From a bacterium (GTDB lineage Bacteria > SAR324 > NAC60-12): 64,000 bases of DNA. Shown in pieces: positions 3,367 through 29,739 of this stretch. Every line of letters begins with the position of its first letter. Positions within the stretch are counted from its first letter, which is position 1. The translations under genes and the position numbers were made by a program. The stretch is from assembly GCA_965205865.1 (NCBI GenBank), contig CBDBHR010000025.1, positions 192,001 to 256,000 on the forward strand. The letters are read 5' to 3'. Below the pieces are notes generated by a model that was not told where the DNA came from, made no database searches, and saw nothing but the letters and a program-made list of their open reading frames with translations.

Positions 3367-3892
3367 ATCTAAACTATATTTTCGGATTACTTGATATATT
3401 TCAGTCAAGACATGTAGAGTTGCCCCGGAGCGGGATGCCGGACTAATTTCCGATCGTGCTGATCCAAGCCCTCATCAGGGTGGCAGGACGATCCTGATCC
3501 ATCTGAAAATGAATAAGCAGTGAACTAAAAGAAAACAGGTGAAAACGGACGTGAAATCGCAGGACAATGTTGCCATTGCTGGTTACGAAGCCGAACTGTG
3601 GCGCATGGCCGACACCCTGCGCGGCAGCATGGATGCCGCCGAATACAAGCACGTCGTCCTCGGCCTCATCTTCCTCAAATACATCTCCGACGCCTTCGAG
3701 GAAATGCGCGCCCGCCTCGAAGAAGAGCGCGCGCAAGGCGCTGACCCTGAAGATCCCGACGAGTATCGCGCCGAGAACATCTTCTGGGTGCCGGCCAAAG
3801 TGCGTTGGATACAGCTCAAGGCGCAGGCGAAGCAACCTGCCATCGGCCAACTCGTCGACGACGCAATGGCCGGGATCGAGCATGACAATCCG
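3362..3892 (+). repeat. About 530 bp near-identical direct repeat (hsdM leader plus 5' hsdM), copy 1; copy 2 at 7702..8233
   Basis: Both copies start AATGAATCTAAA and run to GACAAYCCG with scattered substitutions. Confidence 0.95.
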
Positions 3893-4307
3893 CAGCTCTT
3901 CTCCCTCTCCCTCGAAGGGAGAGGTCCGGGGTGAGGGTGCCGCCACGGAGCTTGCTCTTCTTTTTCCCTCTCCCTCGAAGGGAGAGGTCCGGGGTGAGGG
4001 TGCCGCCACGGAGCTTGCTCTTCTTTCTCCCTCTCCCTCGAAGGGAGAGGTCCGGGGTGAGGGTGCCACCACGGAGCTTGCTCTTCTTTCTCCCTCTCCC
4101 TCGAAGGGAGAGGTCCGGGGTGAGGGTGCCGCCACGGAGCTTGCTCTTCTTTTTCCCTCTCCCTCGAAGGGAGAGGTCCGGGGTGAGGGTGCCGCGATTT
4201 ACCGCGATATTCCCGGTTTTTGCAAAAGCGCAACCGTGAATTCGGACGTTGCCATCAAGAACAACTTCAAGGCGGTGGATTTCCCACTAGGAGGAAAATG
4301 CTCATGA
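3539..4307 (+). pseudogene. hsdM: Type I RM methyltransferase remnant with two internal deletions
   Basis: N-terminus nearly identical to hsdM at 7880. About 992 nt (including NPPF) are deleted at a CG microhomology near 3891, causing a frameshift. It resumes with the repeats and [12 protein letters not shown], then a second deletion. Confidence 0.92.
3901..4190 (+). repeat. Five tandem palindromic units, 63 bp period (CCCTCTCCC-TCGAA-GGGAGAGGTCCGGGGTGAGGGT)
   Basis: Units start at 3901, 3964, 4027, 4090 and 4153. Confidence 0.97.
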
Positions 4308-4549
4308 CAGTCAATGAGTTGATCGAACTACTCCAAAAATATCCCGCCGGACTGCGCGTAGTAGTGAACGGTTACGAAGAGGGTTACGACGACCTCTCAC
4401 CGCAACAAATCTCTATTGCGACGATTTGCCTGAACACCGGGGTCCATCTCTGGCAAGGCCGGCATGGAGACCCGTCCTTCTCGATGGAAGGGACCACGGA
4501 CGAGGAAGAAACCGTCGATGCTCTGGTCCTCCGTCGCGAATCCAATTGA
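4304..4549 (+). CDS. Small hypothetical protein (MTVNELIELLQKYP...)
   Basis: AGGAGG RBS upstream; start overlaps the stop of the hsdM remnant (ATGA). Confidence 0.7.
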   Translation: MTVNELIELLQKYPAGLRVVVNGYEEGYDDLSPQQISIATICLNTGVHLWQGRHGDPSFSMEGTTDEEETVDALVLRRESN

Positions 4550-4572: not shown

Positions 4573-4989
4573 ATGGTCGATCACGAAAAATTTCGAATGT
4601 CGCTCAAGCGACTGGAAGAGCAGTACGGGAATTACCCGGCACACGACACTTGCTTGCCCGATTTGATTCGGGAAGCTGTCGCAGAATCAGCAATCCAGCG
4701 TTTCGAGACCTGCTATGACTGTTTGTGGAAGGTATTGAGACGATACCTGATTGAAGAATTGGGTCTCGCGGAAACGCCCAACAGCCCCAAGCCCCTCTTT
4801 AAACTGACTCACGAGAACACTCTATTCGACGCATCACTGGAGCAATGGCTGATCTATGCGGACAGGCGCGTAGATACGACCCACGACTACAGAGGTGAGA
4901 AAACACAAGCCTGCCTGGACATCATGGACGATTTCATCGACGACGCCATCGGCCTCTACCAGACCATGAGCGGGGAGACATGGGGATAA
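4573..4989 (+). CDS. HEPN / nucleotidyltransferase substrate-binding (HI0074-like) protein, copy 1
   Basis: [24 protein letters not shown] and R-x4-H-x-Y motif (RVDTTHDY); sits directly upstream of an MNT domain. Confidence 0.88.
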
Positions 4990-7095
4990 ACCGGCCCATC
5001 GACATCACGGCGGAGCAGCGCAAAACACTTCTGGCGTTGCTCGAGAAGCATTTACCGAACACGACCACCTGGGTCTATGGCTCTCGTATCCAATGGAATG
5101 CGCGGCCTCAATCCGATCTCGACATGGTGGTCTTCACATCCCCATCGCAAGAAAGCCACGTATCCGCGCTCAGGGAAGCTCTCGAAGAAATCAACCTCCC
5201 ATTTCGCGTCGATCTGTTCGTCTGGGACGATGTGCCTGAGTCTTTCCGAAAGCACATCAAGAGGGATCATATCGTGTTGATTGCAACCAACCATTCCGAC
5301 GGCTCCGAGAGCCACCTGGAAGTGGCGGACAAAGACCACGTGGTATTTCGGGAAAAAATGGGAAGAAAGCCTCAAGTAAATGGTGAGTGGCATAAGGGTT
5401 GGTGCGAACTGCCATTTAGCGAAGCAGTCCAACTCAACCCAACAGTCTCTATCAACCGCGGTACTGTTTACCCGTTCGTCGACATGAGCGCCGTAAACGT
5501 CGGTTCTCGCTTCGCATACGCTTCGGAGCAACGCCTATTCAAGGGAGGAGGCTCCAGATTCCGGAACGGAGACACCCTGATGGCTCGTATCACTCCTTGC
5601 TTGGAGAATGGCAAGATTGCGCGCTACCAAGCAGTCGACTCCGTCAGCGTCGGGCATGGCTCGACGGAGTTCATAGTCATACGTGGACGCCCGAAGATTA
5701 CAGACAACGATTTCGTCTACTACCTGACCAAATGGGAGGAAGTCCGCAATTATGTGATTGGGCAGATGACTGGAACCTCTGGCAGACAGCGAGTGCCCAC
5801 GGACGCTTTGGACCATCTGATGGTTCCCCTTCCACCCTTATCCGAACAACGCGCCATCGCCCACATCCTGGGCACGCTGGACGACAAGATCGAGTTGAAC
5901 CGGCGCATGAACGAGACCTTGGAAGCGATGGCGCGGGAGCTGTTCAAATCCTGGTTCGTCGATTTCGATCCCGTCCATGCGAAAGCCACCCTGAAACGCC
6001 AAAGCCCTCCGCCAAAACCAGACAAATGCGGAGGGACTCCTCTGGCACTACTTGCGCAACAAACAACTGGACGGTCACAAATTTCGACGTCAACAGCCAA
6101 TAGGCCCCTACATCGTGGACTTTGCCTGCATGCCCCGGAAATTGATCGTCGAACTGGATGGTGGCCAACATGCTAAACAAGAAGCCAATGATGACAAGCG
6201 TAATACATATTTAAAGGACAAGGGTTTCCGCATACTGCGCTTCCGGAACAACGAAGTCTTCGAGAATTGTTTCGGCGTACTGGAGAGCATTTATACCGCC
6301 CTGCATCATCACCCTCCCCTCGAGGGAGGGTCGAAAGACGCCAGTCTTTCGGGGAGGGGCTCCCCCCCACCGCATCAACCGTCGCCTGCCGGCTCGGTTT
6401 CTGCGACTCCCCCTCGAGGGGGGAGTGAGTGGACCCCGGAACGCGCCCGCGCCTATCTCGACAGCATGGACGACGACATCATGTCCCTGTTCCCCGACAG
6501 TTTCGAAGACTCAGAATTGGGAAAGATTCCAAAGGGGTGGGAGGTGAAGACGTTGGAGGAGAATGGAACGATAATCACGGGCAAAACTCCGAGCACTCGT
6601 AACCCGAATTTCTACGGAGATGACGTTCCGTTGTTGAAGATCCCCGATATGCGCGGAAAGATACATGTAGTGGAAACAAGCACGATGCTTTCAAGAGAGG
6701 GAGCGTCCTCACAACCGACAAAGGCCCTATCTTCCGGTAGCGTTTCAGTCAGTTGCATAGCCTCGCCGGGTTTGGTTGTCTTGAATCACCAAGAGACCCA
6801 TACCAACCAGCAAATCAACAGCATCATCCCTAAAGACAAGCGAGCTGGCAAATATCTATTCTGGACATGTAGAAGACTGTCGACAGAAATAATTTCGGGG
6901 AGTAGCGGAGGATCTATTTTTGGCAATATGAACAAGTCAACATTTGGCGCCCTACTAATCCTGAACCCGGAGTCAACGCTTGTTCGCATGTTTGATATTT
7001 TGATCACTCCAATACACAACCAAATACTATTGAATGAGCAACAAAAAATTCTACTAACACGCATCCGGGACATTCTGCTGCCAAAATTAATGTCG
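4980..7095 (+). pseudogene. hsdS: MNT-HsdS(-DUF559) fusion, frameshifted, with different TRDs from copy 2
   Basis: [38 protein letters not shown] 116-nt deletion relative to copy 2 near 6000 shifts the frame. DUF559 and TRD2 lie in ORF 6052..; HsdS similarity ends at LLPKLMS. Confidence 0.9.
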
Positions 7096-7706
7096 CGGAA
7101 ATATTCGATACTTTCGCATACAGTTATGGTCAAGTGGATGAAGGAACACTTTATCGATACGCGCAATCGAGGATTCCCGAATTGCAACAGCCGTATCTCC
7201 TGATTCTGTCTACGATCAGCACCCATGCTCCTTATTATTTTCCGGATTCGATTAATTTCAATGGAAATGCAAACGCGAGAGCGGCCTATCATTATGCGGA
7301 CAATGAACTGGGGAAATTTATCCGGTTTTTCGACGATTCCCCATTGTTCGAGGATAGACTGCTTCTGATCACGGTGGACACGGCAACGGGATGGTGTCCT
7401 CTTTTCGGGAAAGATTCTGAATATGGAAGGATGATTCATTCCCAGAAAGTTCCTTTACTCTTCTATTATCAAGGACTAAAACACCCTGTGATTATTGATA
7501 TTCCTGGCGCCCACTATGATATTGCTCCCACTCTGTTGAATATTCTCGGAATTGAATATCAAGCTTCTTTTATAGGGAAGAATCTCTTTGAAAAAGAGGG
7601 TTTGACAGGAAGAGCCATTCTATTCAACAGAAGCTCCTATCGCGGTCTGTTGCAAGGGAGTTGTATTCATTACCATCAAATGCACTCTCTCCTTGCAATT
7701 AAATGA
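7096..7706 (+). pseudogene. Fragment of an LTA synthase/sulfatase-family gene
   Basis: STISTHAPY, YADNELGKFI, VPLLFY, DIAPTLLNILG and GKNLF; no N-terminal membrane domain; joined to the hsdS remnant. Confidence 0.8.
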
Positions 7707-7879
7707 ATCTAAAACTATATTTTCGGATTACTTGATATATTCCAGTCAAGACATGTAGAGTTGCCCCGGAGCGGGATGCCGGACTAATTTCCGATCGTGC
7801 TGATCCAAGCCCTCATCAGGGTGGCGGGACGATCCTGATCCATCTGAAAATGAATAACCAGTGAACTAAAAGGAAACAG

Positions 7880-9628
7880 GTGAAAACGGATGTGAAATCG
7901 CGGGACAATGGCGCCATCACGGGTTACGAAGCCGAACTGTGGCGCATGGCCGACACCCTGCGCGGCAGTATGGATGCCGCCGAATACAAGCACGTCGTCC
8001 TCGGTCTCATCTTCCTCAAATACATCTCCGATGCCTTCGAGGAAATGCGCGCCCGCCTCGAAGAAGAGCGCACACAAGGCGCTGACCCGGAAGACCCGGA
8101 CGAGTATCGCGCCGAGAACATCTTCTGGGTGCCGGCCAAAGCGCGTTGGACACAGCTCAAGGCGCAGGCGAAGCAGCCCACCATCGGCCAACTCGTCGAC
8201 GACGCAATGGCCGGGATCGAGCATGACAACCCGGCGCTCAGGGACGTGCTGCCCAAGGATTATGCGCGCCCCGCGCTTGATAAACAACGACTCGGCCAAC
8301 TCATCGACATGATTAGTAATATCAGAGTGGGTGATCAGGAAGCGCGCTCCAAGGACGTGCTGGGTCGCGTGTACGAGTATTTCCTCTCTCAGTTCGCCAG
8401 CGCCGAAGGCAAGAAAGGAGGCGAATTCTACACCCCGCGTTGCGTCGTCAAGCTTCTTGTCGAGATGCTCGAACCCTGGCAGGGACGAGTTTACGATCCC
8501 TGTTGCGGTTCGTCCGGCATGTTTGTGCAATCTGTCGAATTCATCCGAGCCCACGCTACCGGAAACGGCAATGGCGGGAAAATACCACGGGGCGCCAAGG
8601 CTGTCTCCATCTATGGCCAGGAATCGAACTATACGACCTGGCGGCTTGCCAGAATGAACCTCGCCATTCGAGGTATCGAAGGTCAGATTGCTCACGGTGA
8701 CACCTTCCACAATGACCGCCACCCCGACCTCAAGGCGGACTTCATCCTCGCCAATCCGCCATTCAATATTTCCGACTGGGGAGGGGGGCAACTCACTGAC
8801 GACAAGCGCTGGCAATACGGCATCCCACCCAAGGGCAACGCCAACTTCGCTTGGGTGCAGCACATCGTCCATCACCTCGCGCCCAATGGCACAGCCGGCT
8901 TCGTCCTGGCCAACGGATCGATGTCGTCGAACCAGTCTGGTGAGGGAAATATCCGCAAAAGCCTGATCGAAGCGGACCTGGTGGACTGCATGGTAGCGCT
9001 GCCGGGCCAACTCTTCTATTCCACTCAGATTCCCGCCTGTCTCTGGTTCCTGGCAAGGGACCGCCACACCTCCCGCGGCAAGGTGGGTCTGCTATCCGGG
9101 CGTGACCGGCGCGGCGAAGTGCTCTTCATCGACGCGCGCAAACTGGGCCGTATGGTCGACCGCACTCACCGCGAGCTGACCCATGAGGACGTTTCCCGCA
9201 TCGCCGACACCTACCACGCTTGGCGCAACTCTTCTCCCTCTCCCTCGAAGGGAGAGGGCCGGGGTGAGGGTACGACGACGAAGCTTTCTCCCTCTCCCTC
9301 GCAGGGAGAGGGCCGGGGTGAGGGTGCGACGACGGAGCTTTCTCCGTCTCCCTCGAAGGGAGAGGGCCGGGGTGAGGGTGACGCGATTTACCATGATATT
9401 CCCGGATTCTGCAAAAGCGCGACCTTGGATGAGGTACGCAAACACGGTCATACCCTCACCCCTGGCCGCTACGTAGGGGCAGAGCGACAAGAAGACGATG
9501 GCGAGCCATTCGAAGTCAAGATGGGGCGCCTCACCGCCCAGTGGCGCGAACAACAGTCTGAAGCCACCAGACTAGACGCTGCTATTGCCGCTAACCTGAA
9601 GTTACTCGGATTTGGAGAAAACCGATGA
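7880..9628 (+). CDS. hsdM: Type I RM N6-adenine methyltransferase subunit M
   Basis: [17 protein letters not shown] (motif I) and ANPPF (motif IV). Confidence 0.97.
9234..9379 (+). repeat. Three in-frame palindromic units, 54 bp period, inside hsdM ([13 protein letters not shown])
   Basis: Units at 9234, 9288 and 9342, between YHAWR and [11 protein letters not shown]. Confidence 0.97.
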
Positions 9629-11373
9629 CTTTCAGCGATAAAGAACTCAAACGTCAGCTCAGCCTTGGAGAGGACACTCAATGGGAATTCAAGCAGATCG
9701 TCTTTTCACAGAGTCGCCCAAGAAGTCCAAGCCGCGACGATCTGGCAGATGAGATTGCTGCTTTTGCCAATGCAGACGGGGGAGTACTGCTCTGTGGCGT
9801 CACCGACGAAGGCGTAATTCAAGGTATGTCTCGTGAAGAGATCGTCGAGTTGGATTCTTTTCTGGTCGAGGTTAGCTCCGACTCCATCAAACCGGCCGTT
9901 CGTATCAGCACCTATCACAGAGAACTGGATGGCAAGCGACTTCTCCTGGTTGAAGTACCTCAGAGCGGATCGCAGCACGACAGCCCGGGTGGGAGCTACG
10001 TTCGGGTAGGTGGGTCAAAGCGCCGAATGACAAGCGATGAGCGGTTACGCCTGGCACAGCAGCGTAGCCAAGCGCGATTCCTGTGGTTCGACAAGCAGCC
10101 CGTGCCCAACACCGGATTGGGGACGCTGGACAAAGCGCTTTGGAATCCATTGTTGAACGCAGAAGGCAGGGCCTATCCGGATACGGCGCTAGAAAAAATG
10201 GCTTTTCTCGGACGAGACGAGCACGGTACGGTGCGAGCGACCGTCGCCGGCCTTCTCTTTTGCAGCCACGCCCCGGAAGAATGGTTACCCAACGCTTGCA
10301 TCACCGCCACCTACTACCGCGGTACTGATCGATCCTCCGGCCAACTCGACACCCGGACGATCAGCGGCCCCCTCAATCGACAAATTGCCGAAGTGGTCGC
10401 CTTTGCCTTGCGTAATATGCGCGTTGGAGCCTACAAAGACCCGGCCCGCACGAATTTGCCGCAGTACAGTGCGGAGGCCCTGTTTGAGGCCCTCGCCAAT
10501 GCCGTGGCCCACCGCGACTATTCGATGCGCGACAGTCGGATTCGCCTTTCGATGTTCGCCGACCGTGTCGAAATCCAGTCGCCGGGCGCCTTGGCTAATA
10601 GTTTGAGGGTAGATGAATTGGAATATCGGCAAGCGACACGCAACGAGGTCCTTGCCTCGGTCTTTGGCCGGATGCCAACCAGCGGTATCCAGGGGGCGGG
10701 TGGTCGGCTTTTCATAATGGAGCGCCGCGGAGACGGTGTCCTCGTCATCCGGCGTGAAACCCGCGAACTGGCCGGGCGTTTGCCACGATTTGATTTGATT
10801 GGGGGTGCGGAACTTCGTGTTACTCTACCAGCAGCTTCCACCAAGCCCAGCCCAGCCCGCGTTCTCATTACCGTGCGCGCTGGTGACCAGCCGCTTGCCG
10901 ATGCGGAGGTACTGGTGCTGTTCCCGAATAAGACTTGGAAACGGGCTACGACAGATGCGCTGGGCGAGGTCATTGTCGGCCTTCATACGATTGATCTGCC
11001 GATGACCGTGTTCGCCGCTGTCCACGGCTTTGCCGCGCACTGCGAACACGAGTGGATGCCCGCAGAAGGTGTGCTCGCCATTGAACTGAAGCCACTTCCC
11101 GACGGGGGTGCCGTGATTTTTTCCGAAGGGAACGGCAAAATTCCGGGGCTGAATGGGTGGCTGAATCCGATTCGAGACACCCTCGATCGAACCTATCTCT
11201 ATGCCTCGAACATTGCCATTAACCAAGGCCAGCAGCAGCCGGTGCATTTTGCGCACGGCGAAGACCTACGGCTCACCGATGTCAATGGCGTCGAGATGAG
11301 CGGGCGAATCGTGGAGATTGTGGGCCGGTGCGCGCTGGTGGAATACCGCGCATATCCGGAGGAGAAGGTTTGA
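9625..11373 (+). CDS. Schlafen/AlbA_2 domain + RecG-C/HATPase_c_4-like domain + extra beta-rich C-terminal region
   Basis: GEDTQWEFK...[41 protein letters not shown] and MERRGDG. Confidence 0.85.
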
Positions 11374-11375
11374 GT

Positions 11376-11792
11376 ATGCTCAATTACGACAAGTTTTATC
11401 GGTCCCTCAAACGTCTGAAAGAGCAGCACGAAAATTACCGGCAACTCGACGTTTCACTACCGGAACTGACCCGGGAAGCTATCGCGGAATCAGCGATCCG
11501 GCGATTCGAGACCTGTTACGATAGTTTGTGGAAGGTATTGAGACGATACCTGATTGAAGAATTGGGTCTCGCGGAAACGCCCAAGAGTCCCAAGCTCCTC
11601 TTTAAACTGGCCCACGAGAATGACCTGTTCGACGTATCACTGGAGCAATGGCTGAGCTATGCGGACAGACGCGTGGGTACGACCCACGACTACAGTGGTG
11701 AGAAAGCGCAAGCCTGCCTGGACATCATGGACGATTTCATTGACGACGCCATCGGCCTCTACCAGACTATGAGCGGGGAAAAATGGGAATGA
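11376..11792 (+). CDS. HEPN / nucleotidyltransferase substrate-binding (HI0074-like) protein, copy 2
   Basis: AIRRFETCYDSLWK; RVGTTHDY (R-x4-H-x-Y); overlaps the hsdS start. Confidence 0.88.
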   Translation: MLNYDKFYRSLKRLKEQHENYRQLDVSLPELTREAIAESAIRRFETCYDSLWKVLRRYLIEELGLAETPKSPKLLFKLAHENDLFDVSLEQWLSYADRRVGTTHDYSGEKAQACLDIMDDFIDDAIGLYQTMSGEKWE

Positions 11793-13966
11793 ACCGGACC
11801 ATCGACATCACCTCCGAACAGCGCAAAACCCTTCTCGCCTTGCTCGCAAGACATTTACCGAACACGACCACCTGGGTCTATGGCTCCCGCGTCCAATGGA
11901 CCGCACGCCCTCAATCCGATCTCGACATGGTGGTCTTCGCATCCCCATCACAAAACGGCCGGGTTTCCGCACTCAGGGAAGCGCTCGAAGAAAGCAACCT
12001 CCCCTTTCGCGTCGACCTCTTCGTCTGGGATAACATACCCGAACAATTCCACAAACATATCGAAGCAGAGTATGCTGTGTTGGTGGAGAAAGAGCAATTT
12101 GCCGACAGTGAATGTTTGCAAACCATTGGAGAATATTCACCGTTCTCCTACGGTAAAGGGCTACCAGATCGCAAGCGGCATCCATCAGGCCAAGTTCCCG
12201 TATTTGGTTCTAACGGCATAGTGGGATATCATGACATCTCATTGACCAACAGCCCAACAGTTATCGTTGGACGAAAAGGAACAGTTGGAGCAGTTCACTA
12301 CTCGCCGGTTCCATGCTGGCCCATCGATACAACATTTTTTGTGACAGACAGAGACTCAGAAATTCTCAGGTTCAAGTATTATACCTTAAAGAGCCTCTCT
12401 TTCAACAGCATGAACACCGACAGTGCGGTCCCTGGGTTGAATCGGGATGCGGCACATGCACTTTACGTGCGAGTACCCGCGAAGCAGGAACAACGAGCCA
12501 TCGCCCACATCCTGGGCACGTTGGACGACAAGATCGAGTTGAACCGGCGCATGAACGAGACCTTGGAAGCGATGGCGCGGGCGCTGTTCAAATCCTGGTT
12601 CGTCGATTTCGACCCCGTTCATGCGAAAGCCACCCTGAAGCGCCACGATGCCCATCACTCCCCCCTTGAGGGGGAGTCGATGAGGCAAGGGCGAAGCCCG
12701 CAGGCGAATCGGTGGGGGGTCATCAAACGCCAATACAGCCAACAAACCCTGCAAAACGCCAAAGTCCTCCGCCAAAACCAGACGAACGCGGAAGGACTCC
12801 TCTGGCACTACTTACGCAACAAACAAATGGACGGTCACAAGTTCCGACGCCAACAGCCAATTGGTCCCTACATCGTGGACTTTGCCTGCATGCCCCGGAA
12901 ATTGATCGTCGAACTCGATGGTGGCCAACATGCTAAACAAAAAACCTATGATGAAAAGCGTGATACATTTTTAAAGGACAAGGGTTACCGCATACTGCGC
13001 TTCTGGAACAACGAAGTATTCGAGAATTGTTTCGGCATACTGGAGAACATTTATGACGTCCTGCATCATCACCCTCCCCTCGAGGGAGGGTCGAAAGACG
13101 CCAGTCTTTCGGGGAGGGGGTCCCCCCCACCGCATAAACCGTCGCCTGACGGCTCGGTTTATGCGACTCCCCCTCGAGGGGGGAGTGATTTTCATGGGGA
13201 AGCCATGAAGGACGAATTCAGAGACAACACCCCCCAAGGGGGGAGTGAGTGGACCCCGGAACGCGCCCGCGCCTATCTCGACGGAATGGACGACGACATC
13301 ATGTCCCTGTTCCCCGACAGCTTTGAAGACTCCGAGTTGGGAAAAATTCCAAAGGGATGGGAGGTTGGCGTGGTCAGCCAACTCGCGGAAAGAATTCAGA
13401 ATGGGGGAACTCCAAAACGATCCAAACTAAGATATTGGGAGCGTGGAGAAATTCCTTGGCTGACCTCCGGTGAGGTCAGACAGTCTTTTATTCTCGGAAC
13501 CCAGGACTTTATTTCTAAGGATGGTCTTGCAAAAAGCTCAGCGAAAATGGTCCCACCACGTTCAATTCTGGTGGCTCTATACGGTGCAACTGCTGGGCAA
13601 GTGTCCATGAATTATCGGTCTCTTTCAACAAACCAAGCGGTGTCAACCGTAATTCCAAGTACGGGGAACAGGTATTTCTGTTTGGTAAGTCTCAAGTTGG
13701 AAGTGTCTGATCTTGGAAACAGAGCTGTGGGGTCGGCACAGCAAAACATCAGTAAGAAAGTAGTTGAAGAAACTATTGTTCTGCTACCTCAGATTGAACT
13801 TCGATCAGCATATGATTTTATGGTGGAGTCACTTTTTGATCGAATTTTCCACAATCTGTACGAAAACCAAACCCTCTCCGCCCTGCGGGACAAGCTGCTA
13901 CCGAAGCTGGTGTCGGGCGAAATTCGTATCGATGAAATTGAAAAACTGATAGAGACAACAATATGA
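11783..13966 (+). CDS. hsdS: Type I RM specificity subunit with N-terminal minimal nucleotidyltransferase and internal DUF559 nuclease domain
   Basis: MNT GS-x10-DLD; TRD1; conserved [26 protein letters not shown]559 [14 protein letters not shown]...ELDGGQH; ELGKIPKGW; TRD2; LRDKLLPKLVSGEI. Confidence 0.95.
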   Translation: MGMNRTIDITSEQRKTLLALLARHLPNTTTWVYGSRVQWTARPQSDLDMVVFASPSQNGRVSALREALEESNLPFRVDLFVWDNIPEQFHKHIEAEYAVLVEKEQFADSECLQTIGEYSPFSYGKGLPDRKRHPSGQVPVFGSNGIVGYHDISLTNSPTVIVGRKGTVGAVHYSPVPCWPIDTTFFVTDRDSEILRFKYYTLKSLSFNSMNTDSAVPGLNRDAAHALYVRVPAKQEQRAIAHILGTLDDKIELNRRMNETLEAMARALFKSWFVDFDPVHAKATLKRHDAHHSPLEGESMRQGRSPQANRWGVIKRQYSQQTLQNAKVLRQNQTNAEGLLWHYLRNKQMDGHKFRRQQPIGPYIVDFACMPRKLIVELDGGQHAKQKTYDEKRDTFLKDKGYRILRFWNNEVFENCFGILENIYDVLHHHPPLEGGSKDASLSGRGSPPPHKPSPDGSVYATPPRGGSDFHGEAMKDEFRDNTPQGGSEWTPERARAYLDGMDDDIMSLFPDSFEDSELGKIPKGWEVGVVSQLAERIQNGGTPKRSKLRYWERGEIPWLTSGEVRQSFILGTQDFISKDGLAKSSAKMVPPRSILVALYGATAGQVSMNYRSLSTNQAVSTVIPSTGNRYFCLVSLKLEVSDLGNRAVGSAQQNISKKVVEETIVLLPQIELRSAYDFMVESLFDRIFHNLYENQTLSALRDKLLPKLVSGEIRIDEIEKLIETTI
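12657..13246 (+). mobile_element. Putative in-frame DUF559 endonuclease insertion flanked by C/G-rich palindromes
   Basis: Hairpins at 12657-12677, 13071-13091, 13092-13111, 13131-13165 and 13166-13186 surround the DUF559 coding region. Confidence 0.65.
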
Positions 13967-14133
13967 GCGAAACAACAACACAGCAGGTTCCTGATAGCAT
14001 TCTTCCCTATCTCAATGAGATTGCGGAGCGTCTTTGGTCGGGGCGCGCAGCCGTTATGGTAGGGGCAGGGTTCAGCAGAAATGCCAAACCGAACAGTACT
14101 TCATACCCCGACTTTCCTGACTGGTCCCAGCTA

Positions 14134-15967
14134 GACCCTAGCCGAAAAGGGTTTCGAAAATAGTAAATATAACCGATTGGATTCTATTTGATTCTCTATT
14201 TGATTCAATATGACGAGAAAACGATTTATTTTTGTTTTTTATTCGCCCACAGCACAGTTTTTATAGGGAAAAAATCTTTTTTGGACATACTTTCCTCGCC
14301 CCTGCTCATATTTCACACTCCCCCATTGAATATTCAGGCCGCTTGTTTGAGTTGTCTTTTTTTCAACTCAATCATTTTGCAAAAATTATAGGTTAATGCT
14401 TTTTCCAGCAACTCTGCCCGAACGTTTTCAATCCCTCTGCGCATAACTTGTCCGAAATGGAAACGATGCTTAAGATGAAACATCAACGACTCTGCAGCAG
14501 ATCTTCCATTTCGTGATTCCAAATAGATTTCACTTTCCCATTCTTCAATCGGGGTCATCTTTTTTCCCTTTGCCCCACTAATACTAAAAACCTTAACGCC
14601 TTTGCCCATCCACTTTTCTCTGATCGCCTGATTGGCATATCCATCATCAAGGCTCACTTCAGAGGGAATGGTGATGGTGCATCGCAAATGTTCAACAAGG
14701 GCAGGGTCGAGTTGCCCTGAATCAGCAGCATTGCCCTCCGGAGTAATTAACACGGAAATAAAACCATTTCCGCTCCTTCCTAATTGAGGCTTATATCCGA
14801 TAAGCGCTTCTCGATCTCCCTTTTGAATATAAGCCGAACTCTGATCGGAAAGACTCAATACTTTCTCAGTAGAAGGAACCTTCTTTTCTTCAAAAACTCT
14901 TTGATGACAGTAGATGATTACCCGTTGCAAATTAGAAATATCTTCATTCATCATTTCAATGAGGCGAATCAAACGCGTTTTCCGAGAAGGGGGGAGAAGA
15001 GCTTTTTGGGCACGGATATCCACCTTTGCCATTTCTTTTAAAAATTTCCCATGAGCGCTTTGAGCTTTCTTCAATAGGGTTTTGTAATGTTTTTTTCGCT
15101 TCGTTTTACTGTCCTTTTTACCTGTCTCAAAAGCAATCATCTTAGAGAGCTTATTCATCTCCTTGATGAGGAAATCAAAATTTCTTTCACTGATCTTAGC
15201 GATTCCAAATGTATCAAGGGAACGCCCTCGATGGTAGCTTCGCTCCACGAGACGAGTCAATATCGACGAATCAGTAGGCCAAGCTGTATTTCCTTTTACA
15301 GAGGTGCTATCCAGTTTTAAAATATCAAAATCGTCCAACTCTTCATTGAGAACCATTCGAATTTGAGCATCGAAAATAAACTGTCTGGTCTCGTTGCTGA
15401 CAGCATTGACATTATCAAGGATTGTACTCGCTCCCGGCATTTTCAATCCACGGTTGAGCAGAAGCAGATGCAGTGTGATTGACTCTGAAAGAAATATTTG
15501 GGCCGTTTGGGATTTGATACTTCCTAAGTATCCCCGAATCATCATAAAAAGGTAGACTAAAAAAGCCGACATCCGAGGACACCCTATTTCCAGCCTCAGT
15601 TCTTCCGGCTTCAATTCCTCATCTTCTACGGGAAGATGAGGAAGCCATGGATTCCGGGCTTCCTGCCATCGTTTATCCTCTAAACGCTCTTTCTTTTTAT
15701 TTCTTGCGTATTTCTCCAAATCCTGTTCAATTTTGTCCAATATCTCCGGCTCTCGCTCAGACAATTGATCAAGTTCTGATAAGAAATTTTCAAATTCTGT
15801 ATCAGGAGCGCTTAAAAAAAGATGTTTTTCTGCTCGAATGAATGGTTTCATTTTGGGTGCCATAATTCTTAATATTGAAGTTATTCACAGTTATTTCAAT
15901 GAATTATGGCACTTTTTAACCTCAAGTTAAAGATATAATTCTAAAAAATACCTTTTCGGCTAGGATC
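14134..15967 (-). mobile_element. IS5-like (ISNCY/IS5) element, copy 1
   Basis: Inverted repeats GA(C/T)CCTAGCCGAAAAGG; flanking direct repeat within CCAGCTAGA (14127-14135 and 15967-15975). Exact ends are ambiguous by 1-2 nt. Confidence 0.92.
14334..15863 (-). CDS. DDE transposase (IS5-like)
   Basis: LDSTSVKGNTAWPTD, KVLSLSD...IQKG...GYK, LDDGY and RSAAES. Confidence 0.9.
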   Translation of the reverse strand: MAPKMKPFIRAEKHLFLSAPDTEFENFLSELDQLSEREPEILDKIEQDLEKYARNKKKERLEDKRWQEARNPWLPHLPVEDEELKPEELRLEIGCPRMSAFLVYLFMMIRGYLGSIKSQTAQIFLSESITLHLLLLNRGLKMPGASTILDNVNAVSNETRQFIFDAQIRMVLNEELDDFDILKLDSTSVKGNTAWPTDSSILTRLVERSYHRGRSLDTFGIAKISERNFDFLIKEMNKLSKMIAFETGKKDSKTKRKKHYKTLLKKAQSAHGKFLKEMAKVDIRAQKALLPPSRKTRLIRLIEMMNEDISNLQRVIIYCHQRVFEEKKVPSTEKVLSLSDQSSAYIQKGDREALIGYKPQLGRSGNGFISVLITPEGNAADSGQLDPALVEHLRCTITIPSEVSLDDGYANQAIREKWMGKGVKVFSISGAKGKKMTPIEEWESEIYLESRNGRSAAESLMFHLKHRFHFGQVMRRGIENVRAELLEKALTYNFCKMIELKKRQLKQAA

Positions 15968-18900
15968 CAGCTAGATGATTGTTTTACGAGAAGATCCACG
16001 GCAGAAAACCTGGTACTCGGAGCAAATATCTCAGTGTGCCCAAACTAGCGGATGCGGTGCGAGCCGCCTTTGGGCGGCCAGCACTAGACCAGCTATTACG
16101 CGAGGTTATTCCGAATCTGGAATACGAACCATCACCAATCCAAAAGCAGTTACTCAATCTACCTTGGTCGGATGTATTCACGACAAATTACGACACATTA
16201 CTGGAGCGGGCATGCAATGCAGTCATCTCTCAAAGATATGATGTGGTTGTCAATAAAGAGGATCTGACATACTCGCAAAAACCACGAATCATTAAACTGC
16301 ATGGTAGTTTTCCATCTGATCGACCGTTTGTCATTACCGAGGAAGACTACAGGCGTTATCCTGAAAATTTTGCCCCATTCGTAAATACTGTCCGTCAATC
16401 ACTCTTGGAAAATACGCTTTGTCTGGTCGGATTTTCCGGGGACGACCCCAACTTCGTGCAGTGGATCGGATGGATAAGAGATAACTTGGGTGAAAAGAAT
16501 GCTCCCAAAATATATCTCATTGGCCTGTTTAACCTGTCAATCGCGGAGAAAAAACTTCTTGAACAGCGTAACATCTTTCTGGTTGAAATGTCTGAATACC
16601 CTGACATAAAGAGTGAAAATCATTATAAGGCAATGAAACGATTTCTTGAGTACCTACACTTAAGAAAAGAGGATGATAATAATCTTGGATGGCCAAAAGA
16701 AAATGAACTTTCGCATCCAGATCAGGATACAGAAAAAATAGAACAGCTTTCGCGACTTCTCCCAGTCTGGAAAAAACAGCGTCTTTCATACCCAGGATGG
16801 GTAATTGTTCCCGAAGATCGACGTAGCGTTCTTTGGAGAGATACCTTTTCTTGGCTCCATTATCTCTCTGCGACAGACAACCTCCCTGAATTAATCGACC
16901 TCGAATTCGCCTTCGAGCTGAGTTGGCGCATGGAAAAATGTCTCTGTCCGGTCTTCAGTAACCAAGTAGCATTTTTTGAAGCGATACTGGAAAAGTACCT
17001 GCCCTATGACGATGTGGAAACAAAGACTGATTCATTTCACATGCGATCAGCCGAAGTGAATTCTCAAGAGTCTGATCGAATCGATGTCAGGGAAATGTTG
17101 CCACACCTGCTACTGTGGATGTTACGATTTTACCGCGAAGAAGGGTTGTTGGAAAAATGGGCAAGACTGTGTGAAAAGATACAACAAAATGTCGAGAATT
17201 TATCCGCCGGACACAAAGCGTATTTCTACTATGAACGGGGCCTTTATGCGTTGTTTGGTTTGAACTTGCGGGAACTCAAAGAAATTCTGGCAGAATGGCA
17301 GGTCAATGAATCGTTACCATTCTGGGAGGCCAAAAGAGCGGGATTGCTTGCTGAAATCGGGCAAGTGGATGACGCGAAAAAAATTCTTGAACGATCACTG
17401 AAAGATATCCGCTCCAAACTGAATCTGAAATCGATTACATCGGATTATTCCTTGGTTTCACAGGAATCTTTTATAATGCTCTTACTGCAATACGTGCAAA
17501 CATCCGTAGCTTACAACAATGTTGACCGGTCAGAAATTCAAGCGCTTCGCAATGAATTTTCAGAACGCTGGAATGCGCTCAACCAGTATAAATGCGATCC
17601 ATGGAATGAATTGAAACTTTTTAGAAGCACTCTCAAACAACCTCCGGTAAAGCAATCAGAGGTCACAGAAAGGAATGAATTCGACATCGGACGGGTCACA
17701 CGAACGTACCAATTTGGCAGTGGGAATAAGGAAACATTGATCGCGTATAGTTTTCTACGTTTTTGTGAAGATGCGGGCATACCTTTCAAAATACCTGGAA
17801 GCATTATTGGGAAAGAAGCCGCAGAAGGGACGTTATCCTGGATCATGGAGTCTTCCCCGTACTGGGCATTGGCAACCATGGTTAGGATTGGCGATGAAAA
17901 CGTCGTAGATCATATTTTCAACAGGGCGTCCTTATCTAAAAAGGAGACAGCTTTTGTTGACAGTCTTATCGAAAAATATCTCTGCTGCCTTGAGCAAAGC
18001 GTGGCAGGTATCCGTACAGGGAGTGGTTTTCTAATGGACAATTTTGAGAAAGTACTGGCGGGAGTCGTCCCCGAGATTTTATCCAGACTGTGTTGCAAAT
18101 GCTCACCTCAATCAAGAGACCGGCTTTTCGACTTTCTCTTTGGCGTTTACCAGTCGGACCATAGAGGTAAGTATGGAGAAATCCGCAAGCTGACTGAAAG
18201 GCTTTTGAGTGCTTTCCCGGCTCAGCATCGTTATGATTTGATTCCGAGATTGTTGGAGTTTCCTGTCGTTGAAAGTTCCGACCCCATCGAAGCAAGGAAC
18301 TTCATTAATCCGTTTCACTTTCTCAGTCTCGAAATAGAATGGACCGAAACCTGGGACAAGCCGATAATCCCGGACGAAAAAGTAAATATTTTCCTTGAGA
18401 GAGCATCATCTGAACACTCCTACGTGCGGAAATGGGCAACGCACGAACTTGGCGAGTTGCATATCCTGGGACTGTTAACAGATAGTCAGATGGATAAATT
18501 TGCTGAGTCGCTCTGGAGTAACCTGGGTGATTTTGATCTCCCAACTGAAACCGATTACTATAAATTTGCCTTTCTGGAAATGCCTCATCCTCCGAGCATA
18601 GAGCCAATACTATTATTCAAAAACTATGTTGAAAGTGAGCAATTTCCCGTTCAGAAAAATCGCGAAGATCAAAGAATCACTTTTACTGGAGGAGATATCC
18701 CGCTCTGCAACGATATCGATAGAGCCAGCAAGCGTATCGAATGGTCCGAAGACGATGTCAATTCCATACTGGATCGCCTTGTTGAATGGTGGGACGCTGA
18801 CAAGGAGTATTTGAAAGCAGACGACCGCGCCGCCCCATTTGGTTCTCTCGCAGATGAATTCAAAGCGAGGTTTGCGCGTTTGGTGGACGTCTTGGCAGCC

Positions 18901-19569
18901 GTGATTACTCCCAATTTCAATCCGAGTGAAGAAGATTACAGAAAAAAGACGTTAGGGCGCCTAGTCATTGAACTTCTTGACTATGGGATTCCTGCGCTTC
19001 GTCTGCAGAGTGCCTGTCTTCACCTATATCCCGAATGGAAAGATGACGTTTTCCAGAGAATCGAAAACGGAATGACTTCCTCCGATCATGCAACAGTTAT
19101 CGACTGTCTTGAAGCATTTTTGGTCATTGCGGAGAGAAGCGAGTCGGACGCAGATAAAAACGACTTTTCAAGAATCTTGCACGTGTTGGCTCAGATGGTT
19201 CGCTGGCAAAAGAATACGGGTCTGGCGAGCGCACTCTTCACTATCGCTCAACTGACAAAAAAATTTCCTTGGGTCTTTACGGAGGAATTTGAACGGTTGA
19301 CGCTTATGGGGTTGCGTAACATTGCCAGGGATACCGCCACAAATGTGGATGGCGTTGACTTTGCTGATAAGTTGGAGATCCGGCGTGCGGCGGCAAGCCT
19401 GGCATATAACTTATTCGAGCACTACACCAGGCAGGGCAAACCTGCTCCTGATGCGATAACAGAATGGAAGAAAATTTGCCTGTCAGACAATGAATTCGCC
19501 GAAGTCAGAAACCAGTGGATACGACACTAGCTCTGATCTCAAGAAAGCAACCGTAAGGTAAGAATGGAG

Positions 19570-19891: not shown

Positions 19892-20917
19892 ATGATGCTG
19901 ACTGAACCACAAAAAAAGTGTCCGATTTGGCCAAACTATATCGCGACCATTGACTACTCAAACAACAGTATTCGCGTAGAGTCTGCACGAGCCGGTGGAT
20001 GTTACACGATTACCAACACTGCAAAGGAGATGTTAAATGATCTGGACGACTTGTCGAAGGTACGCTTGACTACCCTGCTCATTAATCAAAGAGAGCAAGG
20101 ATTGGAGATTCCGGAAGTTACACACATATTGATAGAAGATGCAAAATCCGGGACTTCTCTTCTAGCTCACGACCGCGCAGACAGGCTTCTCAAATACTTT
20201 GTGGGTTGCTCGGGGATTGTAGGTAACGAAGTAAACATTAGATACAATACTCCTGAAATATGGAGTGCAATCCCTGGGGCAGAATCAACGAAGTTGGATG
20301 AAGTCTTCTCTCTGAAATTATGGGGGGCAATGGCTTGGTCCGAATCAACGGAGTTTCAAGAAGTCTTCTTCCTGACCACATACTTAAAGGAGCAAGGCTG
20401 GATCAAAACAAATCATACGTTTGGTGAAATGGGGATTTGCGTGTCAATTGATGGATACAGACACATCAATGATTCGATTACAACAATCGATCCGGCTCAG
20501 GCATTTGTCGCCATGTGGTTTGATGAAGAGATGACGATTGCGTACGAGGAAGGAATAAAGAAGGCGGTGGAGTCAGCCGGCTACACGCCTATGAGAATTG
20601 ATAAGAAACCGGATGTCAACAAAATCGATGATGAGATTATCGCTGAGATTCGACGCTCTCGATTCCTGATAGCGGATTTCACGCATGGAGACGACGGCGC
20701 AAGAGGTGGCGTCTACTTTGAAGCGGGATTCGCATTCGGCCTTGGGCTTCCCGTGATTTATACTTGCCGAAAAGATATGGTAGACCAACTTCACTTCGAC
20801 ACGCGGCAATACCATCATATCGTTTGGGAGCAGCCTGCCGACCTGCGGCGTGATCTGAAAAACAGAATCCAAGCGTTGATCGGAGAAGGTCCAAACAAAG
20901 GCATCCCCGTCACTTAG
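19892..20917 (+). CDS. Protein with C-terminal nucleoside 2-deoxyribosyltransferase/TIR-like domain
   Basis: AFVAMWF...IDDEIIAEIRRSRFLIADFT...GVYFEAGFAFGLGLPVIYTC...HFDTRQY. Confidence 0.75.
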   Translation: MMLTEPQKKCPIWPNYIATIDYSNNSIRVESARAGGCYTITNTAKEMLNDLDDLSKVRLTTLLINQREQGLEIPEVTHILIEDAKSGTSLLAHDRADRLLKYFVGCSGIVGNEVNIRYNTPEIWSAIPGAESTKLDEVFSLKLWGAMAWSESTEFQEVFFLTTYLKEQGWIKTNHTFGEMGICVSIDGYRHINDSITTIDPAQAFVAMWFDEEMTIAYEEGIKKAVESAGYTPMRIDKKPDVNKIDDEIIAEIRRSRFLIADFTHGDDGARGGVYFEAGFAFGLGLPVIYTCRKDMVDQLHFDTRQYHHIVWEQPADLRRDLKNRIQALIGEGPNKGIPVT

Positions 20918-20996: not shown

Positions 20997-22718
20997 ATGA
21001 TTGATCCAATTCATTCTTTAGCGTTTGCACTCCAATCCAATCGTGGCATTTACGCTGTCTTGCTTGGATCCGGTGTGTCTCGTTCGGCGGGTATTCTGAC
21101 AGGTTGGGAGATTACGCTCGACTTGATTCAAAAAGTTGCAGTTCTGCACGGTGAGACAGTTGCCTCCGAACCAGAGAGTTGGTATCAGGAGAAATTCGGA
21201 AAGGAACCCGACTATTCCGAGCTTCTTGATAACCTCGCTATAACAGCGGCTGAGCGACAACAATTATTGCGTTCCTATTGGGAGCCGAATGAACAAGAGC
21301 GTGAGGAGGGATTAAAACAACCCACTGCGGCACACCATGCCATTGCAGCGCTGGTTGCACGAGGTTTTGTCAAGGTCATTATTACGACGAATTTCGACCG
21401 CCTGATTGAAAGCGCATTGAGGGAGCAAGGTGTTGTACCAAAGATTATAAGTTCGCTTGACCATGTGCAGGGTATGCTTCCACTTATCCACACAAAATGC
21501 TGCGTATTCAAGATTCATGGGGACTATCTCGACACCCGTATTTTAAATACACCCAATGAACTTGCAGCCTTTCCCCATGAGTTCAACCGACTTCTCGATC
21601 GCATTTTCGATGAGTTCGGTCTAATCGTATGCGGCTGGTCAGCGGAGTGGGACGGGGCGTTGCGTGAGGCAATCTTCCGGACTCCATCGCGACGATTTAC
21701 GACCTATTGGACGGCAAGGGGTGAACTCGGGGATGAAGCTCGACGACTGGTTGAACATCGTGATGCCCAGGTGATTTCAATTAAGGACGCTGACACATTT
21801 TTTCATACCGTCCATGGATTTGTCGAAGCCTTGGAAAAATTTTCAAAGCCACATCCGTTAACGACAGAAGTTGCTGTCGCGAATCTTAAACGTTATCTCT
21901 CCGAACCTCGATATCAGATACAGCTAACCGATCTGGTCATTGAAACTACAAATCGAGTGGTTGAATCAACGTCTAGTGAAGCTTTTTCAGTATCAGGACG
22001 TCCAACGAAGGAATCTTTAACGGAGCGGATGCTTGCCTACGAAGCGATCTGTTCAACTCTACTGGCGATGGCAGCAGTAGGAGGTTACTGGGCGAAGCAA
22101 GATCAATATCGTATTTGGCAAGATGCCCTTATTCGTCTCAGTGAAAGGAACCACAGCAGAGGAGATCAGTCATGGCTTGTTTTACAAAAATATCCGGGAA
22201 CACTCTTGCTTTACTCCTTGGGTCTCGGGGCAGTCGCGAAAGATCGAATTGAATTTCTGAGAGAGATTTTTCTTACTCCGATCCATCAACAAAATAGTGT
22301 CGATCGTCTCGCAGTTGATTTACTTTCGCCGAGTCGTTTGTACTCTGAATTGCGAGCTGATTTCCAGGAGAATGAAATGTTCCTTAATAATCGTTTGCAC
22401 AAAGAGTTAAAACAATATACTACGCGACTTATTCCGAACGACGACCGATACACGGCGATCTTCGACAAGCTCGAGATTTTACTGGCACTCAATCGTAAGT
22501 ATAGTTCTGGTTGGTTTTCAGTGGGCAGATTTGCGTACCAATTCCAGAATGCAAAGAAAGTCTTTCAGGAAATAGAGGAATCCATAACACGGTTGCAAGA
22601 TAAGTCACCTTTCGTACAATGCGGAATCTTCGGAAAAAATGCCCAAGAATGCAATCAGCGCCTTGATGAACTGAAGAATTTTATTGCCGGCCTCACTCCT
22701 TTAATAAGGTCTTATTGA
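20997..22718 (+). CDS. SIR2-like domain protein
   Basis: LLGSGVSRSAGI, ITTNFDRLIE, KIHGDY and CGWSAEWD. Confidence 0.88.
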   Translation: MIDPIHSLAFALQSNRGIYAVLLGSGVSRSAGILTGWEITLDLIQKVAVLHGETVASEPESWYQEKFGKEPDYSELLDNLAITAAERQQLLRSYWEPNEQEREEGLKQPTAAHHAIAALVARGFVKVIITTNFDRLIESALREQGVVPKIISSLDHVQGMLPLIHTKCCVFKIHGDYLDTRILNTPNELAAFPHEFNRLLDRIFDEFGLIVCGWSAEWDGALREAIFRTPSRRFTTYWTARGELGDEARRLVEHRDAQVISIKDADTFFHTVHGFVEALEKFSKPHPLTTEVAVANLKRYLSEPRYQIQLTDLVIETTNRVVESTSSEAFSVSGRPTKESLTERMLAYEAICSTLLAMAAVGGYWAKQDQYRIWQDALIRLSERNHSRGDQSWLVLQKYPGTLLLYSLGLGAVAKDRIEFLREIFLTPIHQQNSVDRLAVDLLSPSRLYSELRADFQENEMFLNNRLHKELKQYTTRLIPNDDRYTAIFDKLEILLALNRKYSSGWFSVGRFAYQFQNAKKVFQEIEESITRLQDKSPFVQCGIFGKNAQECNQRLDELKNFIAGLTPLIRSY

Positions 22719-23114: not shown

Positions 23115-23202
23115 ATGACCACTCTGCCCGAAGTGACTTCGAGCACGCCTTGCTGACTTGACTGAAGGGCTTGGCCTGAATGCAACCGCCCATCGGGACC
23201 GG
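23115..23202 (+). pseudogene. hsdR: Decayed 5' end of an hsdR
   Basis: Reads MTTLPE(S)DFEHALLT*LKGLA* with a 1-nt gap, aligning codon-by-codon to [22 protein letters not shown] of hsdR at 26596; both TGA fall on Trp positions. Confidence 0.72.
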
Positions 23203-23229
23203 CCACGTGTAGATAAGGAGATCAATATA

Positions 23230-25465: not shown

Positions 25466-25469
25466 GAAT

Positions 25470-29500: not shown

Positions 29501-29739
29501 CCGTCCGGGTGCTTGGCGACGAGATCCTGCGGACGATCGCGCGCGAACTGGTCGAGACCGTACGCAGCAACGTGACCATCGACTGGACCATGCGCGAAAA
29601 CGTGCGCGCGAATCTTCGCGTGTTGGTCAAACGCACTTTACGCAAGCACGACTACCCACCGGATAAGCAGGAAAAGGCGACGCGGACCGTCCTGGAACAG
29701 GCGGAGGTTCTCTCCGGAGGGTGGGCTCTCTCGGGATGA
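26596..29739 (+). CDS. hsdR: Type I RM restriction subunit R
   Basis: RPDL...IELKN nuclease motif, [23 protein letters not shown] and QAIARVNR. Confidence 0.97.

Follow-up and report, generated by a model that had tools for sequence, protein, structure and literature searches.

A predicted MNT antitoxin domain fused to the HsdS subunit of a restriction-modification system of type I, behind a HEPN gene, in a SAR324 genome

A stretch of 64,000 nucleotides (nt) from a SAR324 genome (GenBank assembly GCA_965205865.1, contig CBDBHR010000025.1, positions 192,001 to 256,000 of the forward strand; hereafter the window, in whose own coordinates all positions are given) carried at 11376-13966 a gene for a HEPN protein, followed by a single open reading frame (ORF) in which an MNT nucleotidyltransferase domain continued in frame into HsdS, the specificity subunit of a type I restriction-modification (RM) system. 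The MNT::HsdS fusion was real, conserved and widespread, and not an error. On balance, HEPN and MNT probably form a HepT/MntA-like (type VII) toxin-antitoxin (TA) pair of the HI0074/HI0073 subfamily, located between hsdM and hsdS, whose antitoxin is now the N-terminal domain of HsdS. What is new is that a gene fusion joins a type VII-like HEPN-MNT pair to a type I RM system, each of a known kind.

The HEPN gene (ATG at 11376 to TGA at 11792, forward strand) encoded a protein of 138 amino acids (aa) of the HI0074/NTase_sub_bind type, a predicted RNase toxin. It matched the Pfam family NTase_sub_bind (PF08780) as a single domain (61.6 bits, cut-off 31.8), as well as the PDB entries 1WWP (TTHA0636) and 1JOG (HI0074), with E-values of about 1e-6. 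The R-x4-H-x-Y motif read RVGTTHDY in this gene (copy B) and RVDTTHDY in a second copy of the pair in the window (copy A, described below). In the HEPN alignment (A3), the arginine of R-x4-H was at least 90% conserved and Y106, the tyrosine of the AMPylation site, was nearly invariant.

The fused gene was one uninterrupted ORF of 727 aa (11783-13966), overlapping the end of the HEPN gene by 10 nt. It starts at the ATG at 11783 or at that at 11789, the latter giving an ATGA overlap with the HEPN stop codon; since the two reading frames overlap, they are translationally coupled. Residues 1-105 (11783-12097, forward strand) formed the MNT domain, a predicted adenylyltransferase antitoxin (PF18765, PF01909), in which residues 29-104 matched Pfam Polbeta (PF18765; 33.9 bits, cut-off 26.9) and NTP_transf_2. 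The domain carried GS-x10-DLD, with the third acidic residue in VDLF, and residues G34, R36, S45, D46 and D48 were invariant in the MNT alignment (A4). It was considered complete because residues 6-108 aligned end to end with HI0073 (PDB 1NO5, chain residues 6-109 of 114; E 2.4e-16). Two PDB chains named 'MNT' (8XEO and 8XEH), which we take to be the Legionella protein, matched weakly (E 0.05-0.14). In the AlphaFold2 (AF2) model, the MNT domain stopped after its third helix (87-105), and the linker to the HsdS part (residues about 96-108, some 10 residues) had a confidence (pLDDT) below 50. In-frame GTG and TTG codons that could start a separate HsdS were found near the linker (12079-12120), none with convincing spacing to a ribosome-binding site. 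A predicted complex of MNT (A4) and HEPN (A3), run without controls, scored 0.01 for a mark of 0.32 and is not evidence either way.

Behind the MNT domain, the window HsdS was complete, with its first target recognition domain (TRD1), central conserved helix, second target recognition domain (TRD2) and distal helix. The linker, TRD1 (residues about 110-232) and the central conserved helix (about 234-290) were located at 12098-12652, and the conserved joint, TRD2 (about 523-671), the distal conserved helix and the stop codon at 13268-13966, both on the forward strand. Pfam Methylase_S matched the fused ORF in two stretches, one of them at residues 523-671, and PADLOC models matched both halves of HsdS; Specificity_I PDLC03099 covered residues 115-302, and Specificity_I PDLC03138 spanned residues 7-277, MNT included. 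AF2 modelled the two TRDs confidently, and likewise the distal conserved helix (means of 10-residue blocks mostly 80-96, about 90 for TRD1 and also about 90 for the TRD2 part), with long HsdS helices at 234-272 and 671-710; confidence in the central helix dropped to about 50-56 around residues 260-280. The two halves were separated by an in-frame DUF559 insert of about 200 residues with a Vsr-like nuclease fold and repeat-derived low-complexity linkers (12653-13267, forward strand; PF04480).

Contigs from three public runs belonging to three studies spanned the MNT/TRD1 junction with zero indels. Contig X1 (11752-12312), which may derive from the sample used for the window's own assembly, showed 0 differences, and contigs X4 (11759-12529) and X5 (11761-12544) each showed 17 substitutions and 0 gaps. 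An earlier note on this DNA, made from its letters alone, had described a HEPN gene with R-x4-H-x-Y overlapping an ORF in which an intact MNT domain with GS-x10-DLD runs in frame into HsdS, and had likened the pair to HepT/MntA. Every detail of that description was correct, and the likeness also held, as the pair was of HI0074/HI0073 type with both catalytic motifs intact.

A protein search with MNT residues 1-125 as query (E<=1e-3; 1053 candidates) found the fusion to be widespread. Matches to the MNT query included 819 proteins of 399-1273 aa, and all 120 long homologues listed combined PF18765 (Polbeta) with PF01420 (Methylase_S) and kept GS-x-DxD. The MNT parts of the long homologues were 63-97% identical to that of the window, and the adjoining TRD1 sequences differed freely, amounting to hundreds of alleles. 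Among proteins shorter than 399 aa, 513 matched MNT; among the 120 listed, 38 were of stand-alone size (<=145 aa) and 41 of 146-250 aa, the latter mostly MNT with a cut-off piece of TRD1, while PF01420 was carried by 32 and an MNT-HEPN fusion was seen in 3. Three clusters listed from the ESM Atlas (67-74 members) showed Methylase_S and Polbeta in 84-96%, with 6 hits carrying the family set, and are taken as a lead only. The architecture was also present in a cultured strain, Zymomonas mobilis ATCC 10988, whose plasmid pZMOB01 (RefSeq) encoded hsdM, an HI0074-family HEPN, a "restriction endonuclease subunit S" of 527 aa beginning with MNT, and hsdR, compactly and in this order.

Genome loci were scanned with two patterns in one genome per species, which gave at least 561 pattern matches and 46 confirmed MNT relatives, classified with phmmer and a HEPN profile; hsdR was scored within a 6-kb flank. 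Because one of these patterns is located within hsdS and the 561 is a lower bound, this sample of 46 loci is biased and gives no frequencies. MNT was fused to HsdS in 25 of the 46 listed loci, with HEPN directly upstream in 24 of the 25. It was a separate gene adjacent to hsdS, and translationally coupled with it, in 3 loci (L034, L045 and L046; HEPN directly upstream in 1), and stood without hsdS in 18, where HEPN lay directly upstream in 12, toxin-first and with an overlap of about 10 nt. The fused loci fell under 11 phylum-level labels, with hsdM upstream in 24 and hsdR within 6 kb in 17. The HsdS-proximal MNT motif was intact in all 25, and of the 24 HEPNs beside them 20 kept R-x4-H-x-Y intact; that the MNT motif was never lost and the toxin sometimes was is the asymmetry expected of a toxin and its enzymatic antidote.

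Other loci carried more than one module. Tandem MNT-MNT-HsdS proteins were found, as displayed by PF22600 in at least 13 of the 120 listed homologues and by a second MNT in the N-termini of P0014, P0020 and P0023; loci L027 and L036 were of this kind, with both MNT motifs intact and a divergent HEPN ahead that had no intact R-x4-H-x-Y. A second successive HEPN-MNT pair was present in L006 and L033, and three HEPN ORFs preceded the fusion in L042. The slot between hsdM and hsdS seems to accumulate HEPN/MNT modules. In a weakly resolved tree of 47 MNT domains, fused and unfused members were intermingled, the fused ones falling into three or more divergent clades, and the well-supported branches forced at least two changes between the fused and unfused states. 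Separately, nearly identical hsdM-HEPN-MNT::hsdS-hsdR loci were seen under a Thermodesulfobacteriota label (L024) and a Zixiibacteriota label (L025), which reflects either a very recent transfer or a binning problem.

At the window locus, the row hsdM-slfn-hepn-mnt::hsdS was a tightly packed operon. Its first gene, hsdM (582 aa; 7880-9628, forward strand), matched Pfam N6_Mtase (6e-105) and HsdM_N, and PADLOC MTase_I (1e-216). It overlapped by 4 nt a gene for a Schlafen AlbA_2/HATPase_c_4 protein (582 aa; 9625-11373, forward strand; Pfam SLFN_AlbA_2 9.5e-22, HATPase_c_4 5.9e-18), whose stop codon lay 2 nt ahead of the HEPN start and whose homologues occupied the equivalent slot in loci L006, L027 and L040. 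A promoter and terminator scan of 7300-14400 gave counts within shuffle expectation and was uninformative. The gene hsdR (1047 aa; 26596-29739, forward strand; Pfam HSDR_N, SWI2_SNF2 and T1RH-like_C; PADLOC REase_I) was located 12.6 kb downstream of hsdS, so that cognate hsdM and hsdR were both at the locus. The interval between hsdS and hsdR held an IS4-family transposase gene (14334-15863, minus strand) and an inserted defence island with Dsr2 (15979-19530, PADLOC), a TIR-like protein (19892-20917), a PDC-S65 SIR2 protein (20997-22718, PADLOC) and NsnA/B/C (23158-26417, PADLOC).

The closest solved sequences to the window pair were HI0073 and HI0074 of Haemophilus influenzae (PDB 1NO5 and 1JOG), with which it shared its Pfam families. 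HI0073 is a free protein of 114 aa, whereas the window MNT continues, after about 10 residues, into a whole HsdS. Among characterised systems, as described in the available parts of the sources cited here and below, the nearest in layout is lpg2920/lpg2921 of Legionella pneumophila (type VII TA); it is toxin-first like the window pair, with an overlap of 8 bp there and 10 nt here, and both MNTs are short (about 108 aa) and without the long C-terminal alpha4 helix; (poly-)AMPylation of HEPN was demonstrated for the Legionella module, and its MNT is monomeric (PMC11586414). Unlike the window pair, that module stands by itself and has no link to RM genes. MntA/HepT of Shewanella oneidensis and Aphanizomenon flos-aquae combines an R-x4-H-x-Y RNase with a GS-x10-DxD MNT, as here, and acts by AMPylation (PMC11586414); it differs in having the antitoxin gene first, a HEPN of DUF86 type and a long MNT alpha4 that binding and activity require.

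Two further kinds of system combine a toxin or defence cassette with a type I locus. PrrC, of the EcoprrI type Ic locus, is an RNase of the HEPN superfamily within an hsd locus, like the window HEPN, and its silencing by the RM proteins is proposed or known (PMC3710099, PMC3632139); it has an N-terminal ABC-ATPase, its gene sits between hsdS and hsdR, and its masking is non-covalent. The window HEPN differs from PrrC and RloC in being a protein of 138 aa with PF08780 alone and no ABC-type NTPase, and from PrrC in lying between hsdM and hsdS, in having an enzymatic antitoxin of its own and in being linked to RM by a gene fusion. DarTG2 in the RRDM island of enteropathogenic Escherichia coli and the cargo discussed under 'guilt-by-embedding' are TA or defence cassettes nested in an hsd operon, as here, but such cargo consists of separate proteins, and the available parts of these reports do not mention a fusion of antitoxin and RM subunit (PMC12255303; 10.1101/2024.01.29.577857).

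The earlier note knew of no functional description of the arrangement, and none was encountered here in the full-text literature, subscription papers being outside this scope. No MNT-HsdS or antitoxin-HsdS fusion was found in that literature either, within the parts available; the 2013 survey of Anantharaman et al. goes no further than calling HEPN-M (PF08780/DUF86) "occasionally fused to ... nucleic acid methylase domains", with "RM_TRD" defined in the legend of its Figure 5; its figures and Additional file 1 could show the fusion (PMC3710099). The sequences themselves are in databases, unremarked, as displayed by the PADLOC model PDLC03138, which spans the MNT domain, and by the NCBI name "restriction endonuclease subunit S". 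One candidate for prior experimental work was discarded. The plasmid-borne type I system HsdRMSp of Z. mobilis ZM4, characterised in a study in which hsdSp was deleted (Lal et al. 2021, PMC8432527), was suspected of carrying an MNT fusion, given a skipped locus tag and two HsdSp superfamilies. On pZM32, hsdR, hsdM and hsdS were directly adjacent, with an HsdS of 420 aa and neither HEPN nor MNT, and as this HsdS is free of MNT, that study says nothing on the fusion.

By analogy with characterised HEPN-MNT systems, the MNT domain would bind a HEPN oligomer and AMPylate the tyrosine of R-x4-H-x-Y, keeping the RNase silent. With no source of antitoxin other than HsdS itself, keeping the toxin silent would require hsdS to stay expressed and stable. 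If the locus were lost or shut off, possibly by segregation, by exchange of hsdS or when a phage shuts down its host, HEPN would go unmodified and could then cleave RNA and arrest growth, and the type I system could thereby gain an addiction function or an abortive back-up. Type I RM systems by themselves are not known to show post-segregational killing.

Several points weigh against this TA reading. That HEPN is toxic and AMPylated, and that the fusion is expressed at full length, are predictions from sequence. The cut-offs of the curated NCBIfam equivalog and subfamily models were not reached, with 43.2 bits for HEPN and HI0074 TIGR01987 (cut-off 55.8), and 35.7 bits for MNT and MntA_antitoxin NF047752 (cut-off 60). 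An AMPylated HEPN would be covalently silenced, so that addiction or an abortive function would call for freshly made toxin or a de-AMPylase. The motif R-x4-H-x-Y was degenerate in the HEPN of L027, L036, L039 and L040, and the fused locus L004 had neither a HEPN gene nor any HEPN remnant. Fusion was not obligatory, as MNT and hsdS were separate in L034, L045 and L046, and most hsdS with the same type of conserved region appeared to be MNT-free (46 MNT relatives in at least 561 pattern matches, in the biased sample). The MNT tree, built on 107 columns, was poorly resolved, with 3 of 44 inner branches well supported. Lastly, the in-frame DUF559 insert could interfere with the assembly of this particular HsdS.

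A role closer to that of PrrC, the idea put forward in the earlier note, would make the MNT domain a tether, holding HEPN on the M2S or R2M2S complex until Ocr, ArdA, an Stp-like factor or degradation disturbs the complex, and HEPN, freed or unmodified, brings about abortive infection. We consider this unlikely, even though a sensor of this kind would need just such a covalent link between the antitoxin and the one subunit around which the complex nucleates, and the arrangement was conserved in loci with hsdM (24 of 25 fused loci) and with hsdR in the flank (17 of 25). The idea has precedents, since PrrC-like action was proposed in 2013 for HEPN genes linked to RM systems (PMC3710099, PMC3632139), and the second RNase-type gene of the operon (Schlafen/HATPase) has its parallel in the back-up effectors of BREX-type loci (PMC12839542), as far as the available parts of these sources go. 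Yet the HEPN-MNT pair was free-standing, without RM genes, in 12 loci, and MNT stood separate beside hsdS in 3; the regulatory ABC-ATPase domain of PrrC is absent here; and control by MNT is enzymatic, such that disturbance of the complex alone would not reactivate a toxin already AMPylated. It is correspondingly doubtful that the RM complex itself serves as the antitoxin and that silencing of HEPN is released when phage anti-restriction proteins displace, degrade or block HsdS. Were it true, the fusion would amount to a PrrC-EcoprrI guard wired covalently and on a wide scale, found in hundreds of protein clusters.

The fusion could also be incidental, a HEPN-MNT cassette having entered the cargo slot between hsdM and hsdS and the coupled genes having been joined by loss of a stop codon, to spread with the mobile RM family without any function beyond that of an ordinary embedded TA. 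Loci L045 and L046, where MNT and hsdS are separate with a 4-nt overlap, look like a precursor or a fission state, and an MNT that stands alone stops about 10 residues short of the point at which the fusions enter TRD1, so that a single stop-codon loss would be enough. The slot gathers other cargo as well (the extra HEPN-MNT pairs of L006 and L033, the three HEPN ORFs of L042, the Schlafen genes), and TA or defence genes embedded in type I operons are known, DarTG2 among them according to the available part of PMC12255303. This explanation appears quite improbable, however, as the fused state dominated among RM-linked members (25 fused, 3 separate), persisted over hundreds of TRD1 alleles, occurred in at least three divergent MNT clades, and was kept in the tandem MNT-MNT-HsdS forms (at least 13 of the 120 listed; L027 and L036). 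A neutral fusion would also be expected to split more often, an argument weakened by the bias of the locus sample.

Very unlikely is a role outside TA biology, in which HEPN, as a 'substrate-binding subunit', and MNT would make up a two-part nucleotidyltransferase on HsdS with some other target, be it a subunit of the RM system, DNA or RNA ends, or a factor of the phage, and might for example regulate restriction. The label of the HEPN family in Pfam and NCBIfam, 'nucleotidyltransferase substrate binding', fits such a role, HI0073/HI0074 was first described as a two-protein nucleotidyltransferase (Lehmann 2005, going by its title), and the MNT motif was intact in all fused loci, including the four without R-x4-H-x-Y and the one without HEPN. 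The motif that unites the RNase site and the AMPylation site was nevertheless kept in 20 of 24 partners, and the characterised HEPN-MNT pairs described in the available sources act as toxin and antitoxin. An artefact of assembly or gene calling, which a 30-contig draft genome and a region rich in repeats might invite, has a negligible chance, given that contigs of three runs from three studies bridged the junction without indel and that hundreds of independent database proteins and the RefSeq plasmid of a cultured strain share the architecture.

Only a handful of toxic back-up effectors in RM loci, mainly PrrC, have had their silencing and triggering worked out in detail, and a predicted adenylyltransferase antitoxin placed physically within the RM specificity subunit, across many phyla, offers a concrete and testable wiring. 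The fusion may explain how type I systems, which are not known to be addictive on their own, can be stabilised. Plasmid pZMOB01 of Z. mobilis ATCC 10988 provides a cultured model of the fusion. The names "restriction endonuclease subunit S" and "nucleotidyltransferase substrate-binding subunit" make the TA content of these loci invisible in standard annotation.

The DUF559 insert of the window hsdS, which follows the central conserved region and precedes TRD2, was matched by PF04480 at residues 322-427 (E 1.9e-41), and most of the insert and its flanks (292-487) had a pLDDT below 50 in the AF2 model. It was bounded by 26-nt GC-rich inverted repeats (12654-12679 and 13164-13189). PF04480 was found in 19 of the 120 listed fused homologues, and in 2 a GIY-YIG domain (PF01541) stood in its place; the insert looks like a mobile nuclease element landing in frame at one spot of hsdS. 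Joints in metagenome contigs that skipped it (12679 to about 13151) had sides of 21-27 letters and were not used. A segment of 60 nt at 13174-13235 was missing in contigs X4 and X5 (two runs), and copies A and B differed by an equivalent in-frame 60 nt at the same place, which indicates that the repeat-derived linker varies in length.

Related repeats were found elsewhere in the locus. GC-rich palindromic units (CCCTCTCCCTCGAAGGGAGAGG...) occurred at 3836-4213 and 9224-9398; in the intact hsdM, three units of 54 nt lay in frame at 9224-9398, and homologous HsdM proteins aligned in two pieces around this site. The hairpins flanking the DUF559 insert were akin to the palindromic repeats of hsdM and were very abundant in metagenome contigs.

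Copy A, upstream on the same strand, was a decayed paralogue of the locus. Its HEPN ORF was intact (138 aa; 4573-4989, forward strand), and its MNT::hsdS (4980-7203, forward strand) was broken. The frame held through MNT, a TRD1 unrelated to that of copy B, and the central conserved region, which was 96% identical between the copies. Within the DUF559 insert, at its left end, 116 nt were deleted and the frame thereby shifted, such that the ORF stopped at 6176; the C-terminal part of DUF559 and a different TRD2 were readable in another frame (6052-7203), the DUF559 region as a whole lying at 5988-6545. The hsdM remnant (3459-4241, forward strand) had lost its methylase core: its promoter region and first 360 nt or so were 94% identical to 7800-8239 and were followed by a 63-nt repeat array (3836-4213). 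Copy A had no Schlafen gene. HEPN and MNT were intact although hsdM and hsdS were broken, which was counted in favour of the TA reading; Ka/Ks between the copies was 0.27 for HEPN and 0.17 for MNT. The earlier note had pointed to a recurrence of the fusion at 4573-5300 with a different TRD1 as a sign that it was no one-off error; the fusion and its different TRD1 were indeed there, but the copy is a broken paralogue and not a second working example.

These were the only two HEPN-MNT copies in the window's own genome, a draft of 30 contigs. Among 40 relatives searched, 6 had any match, and a close one (82% identity) was found only in a genome of the same genus. In this locus (L056; G001:C1, reverse complement 8497-14130), the MNT::hsdS frame continued for about 1250 further residues without a stop to give an ORF of 1877 aa, which may reflect either a genuine read-through fusion or an error in sequencing. 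The extension was unrelated to the Dsr2 of the window, and genes for a TIR-like and a PDC-S65 protein followed, at 80-88% identity.

A small ORF at 4220-4549 (P0005, containing VVVNGYE.GYDDLSPQQIS), upstream of the copy A HEPN gene, had no Pfam match. It had a clear relative at 5700-5970 of L004, the fused locus without HEPN, where it lay between hsdM and MNT::hsdS. Far downstream in the window, another DDE transposase ORF of 509 aa was present at 61715-63244.

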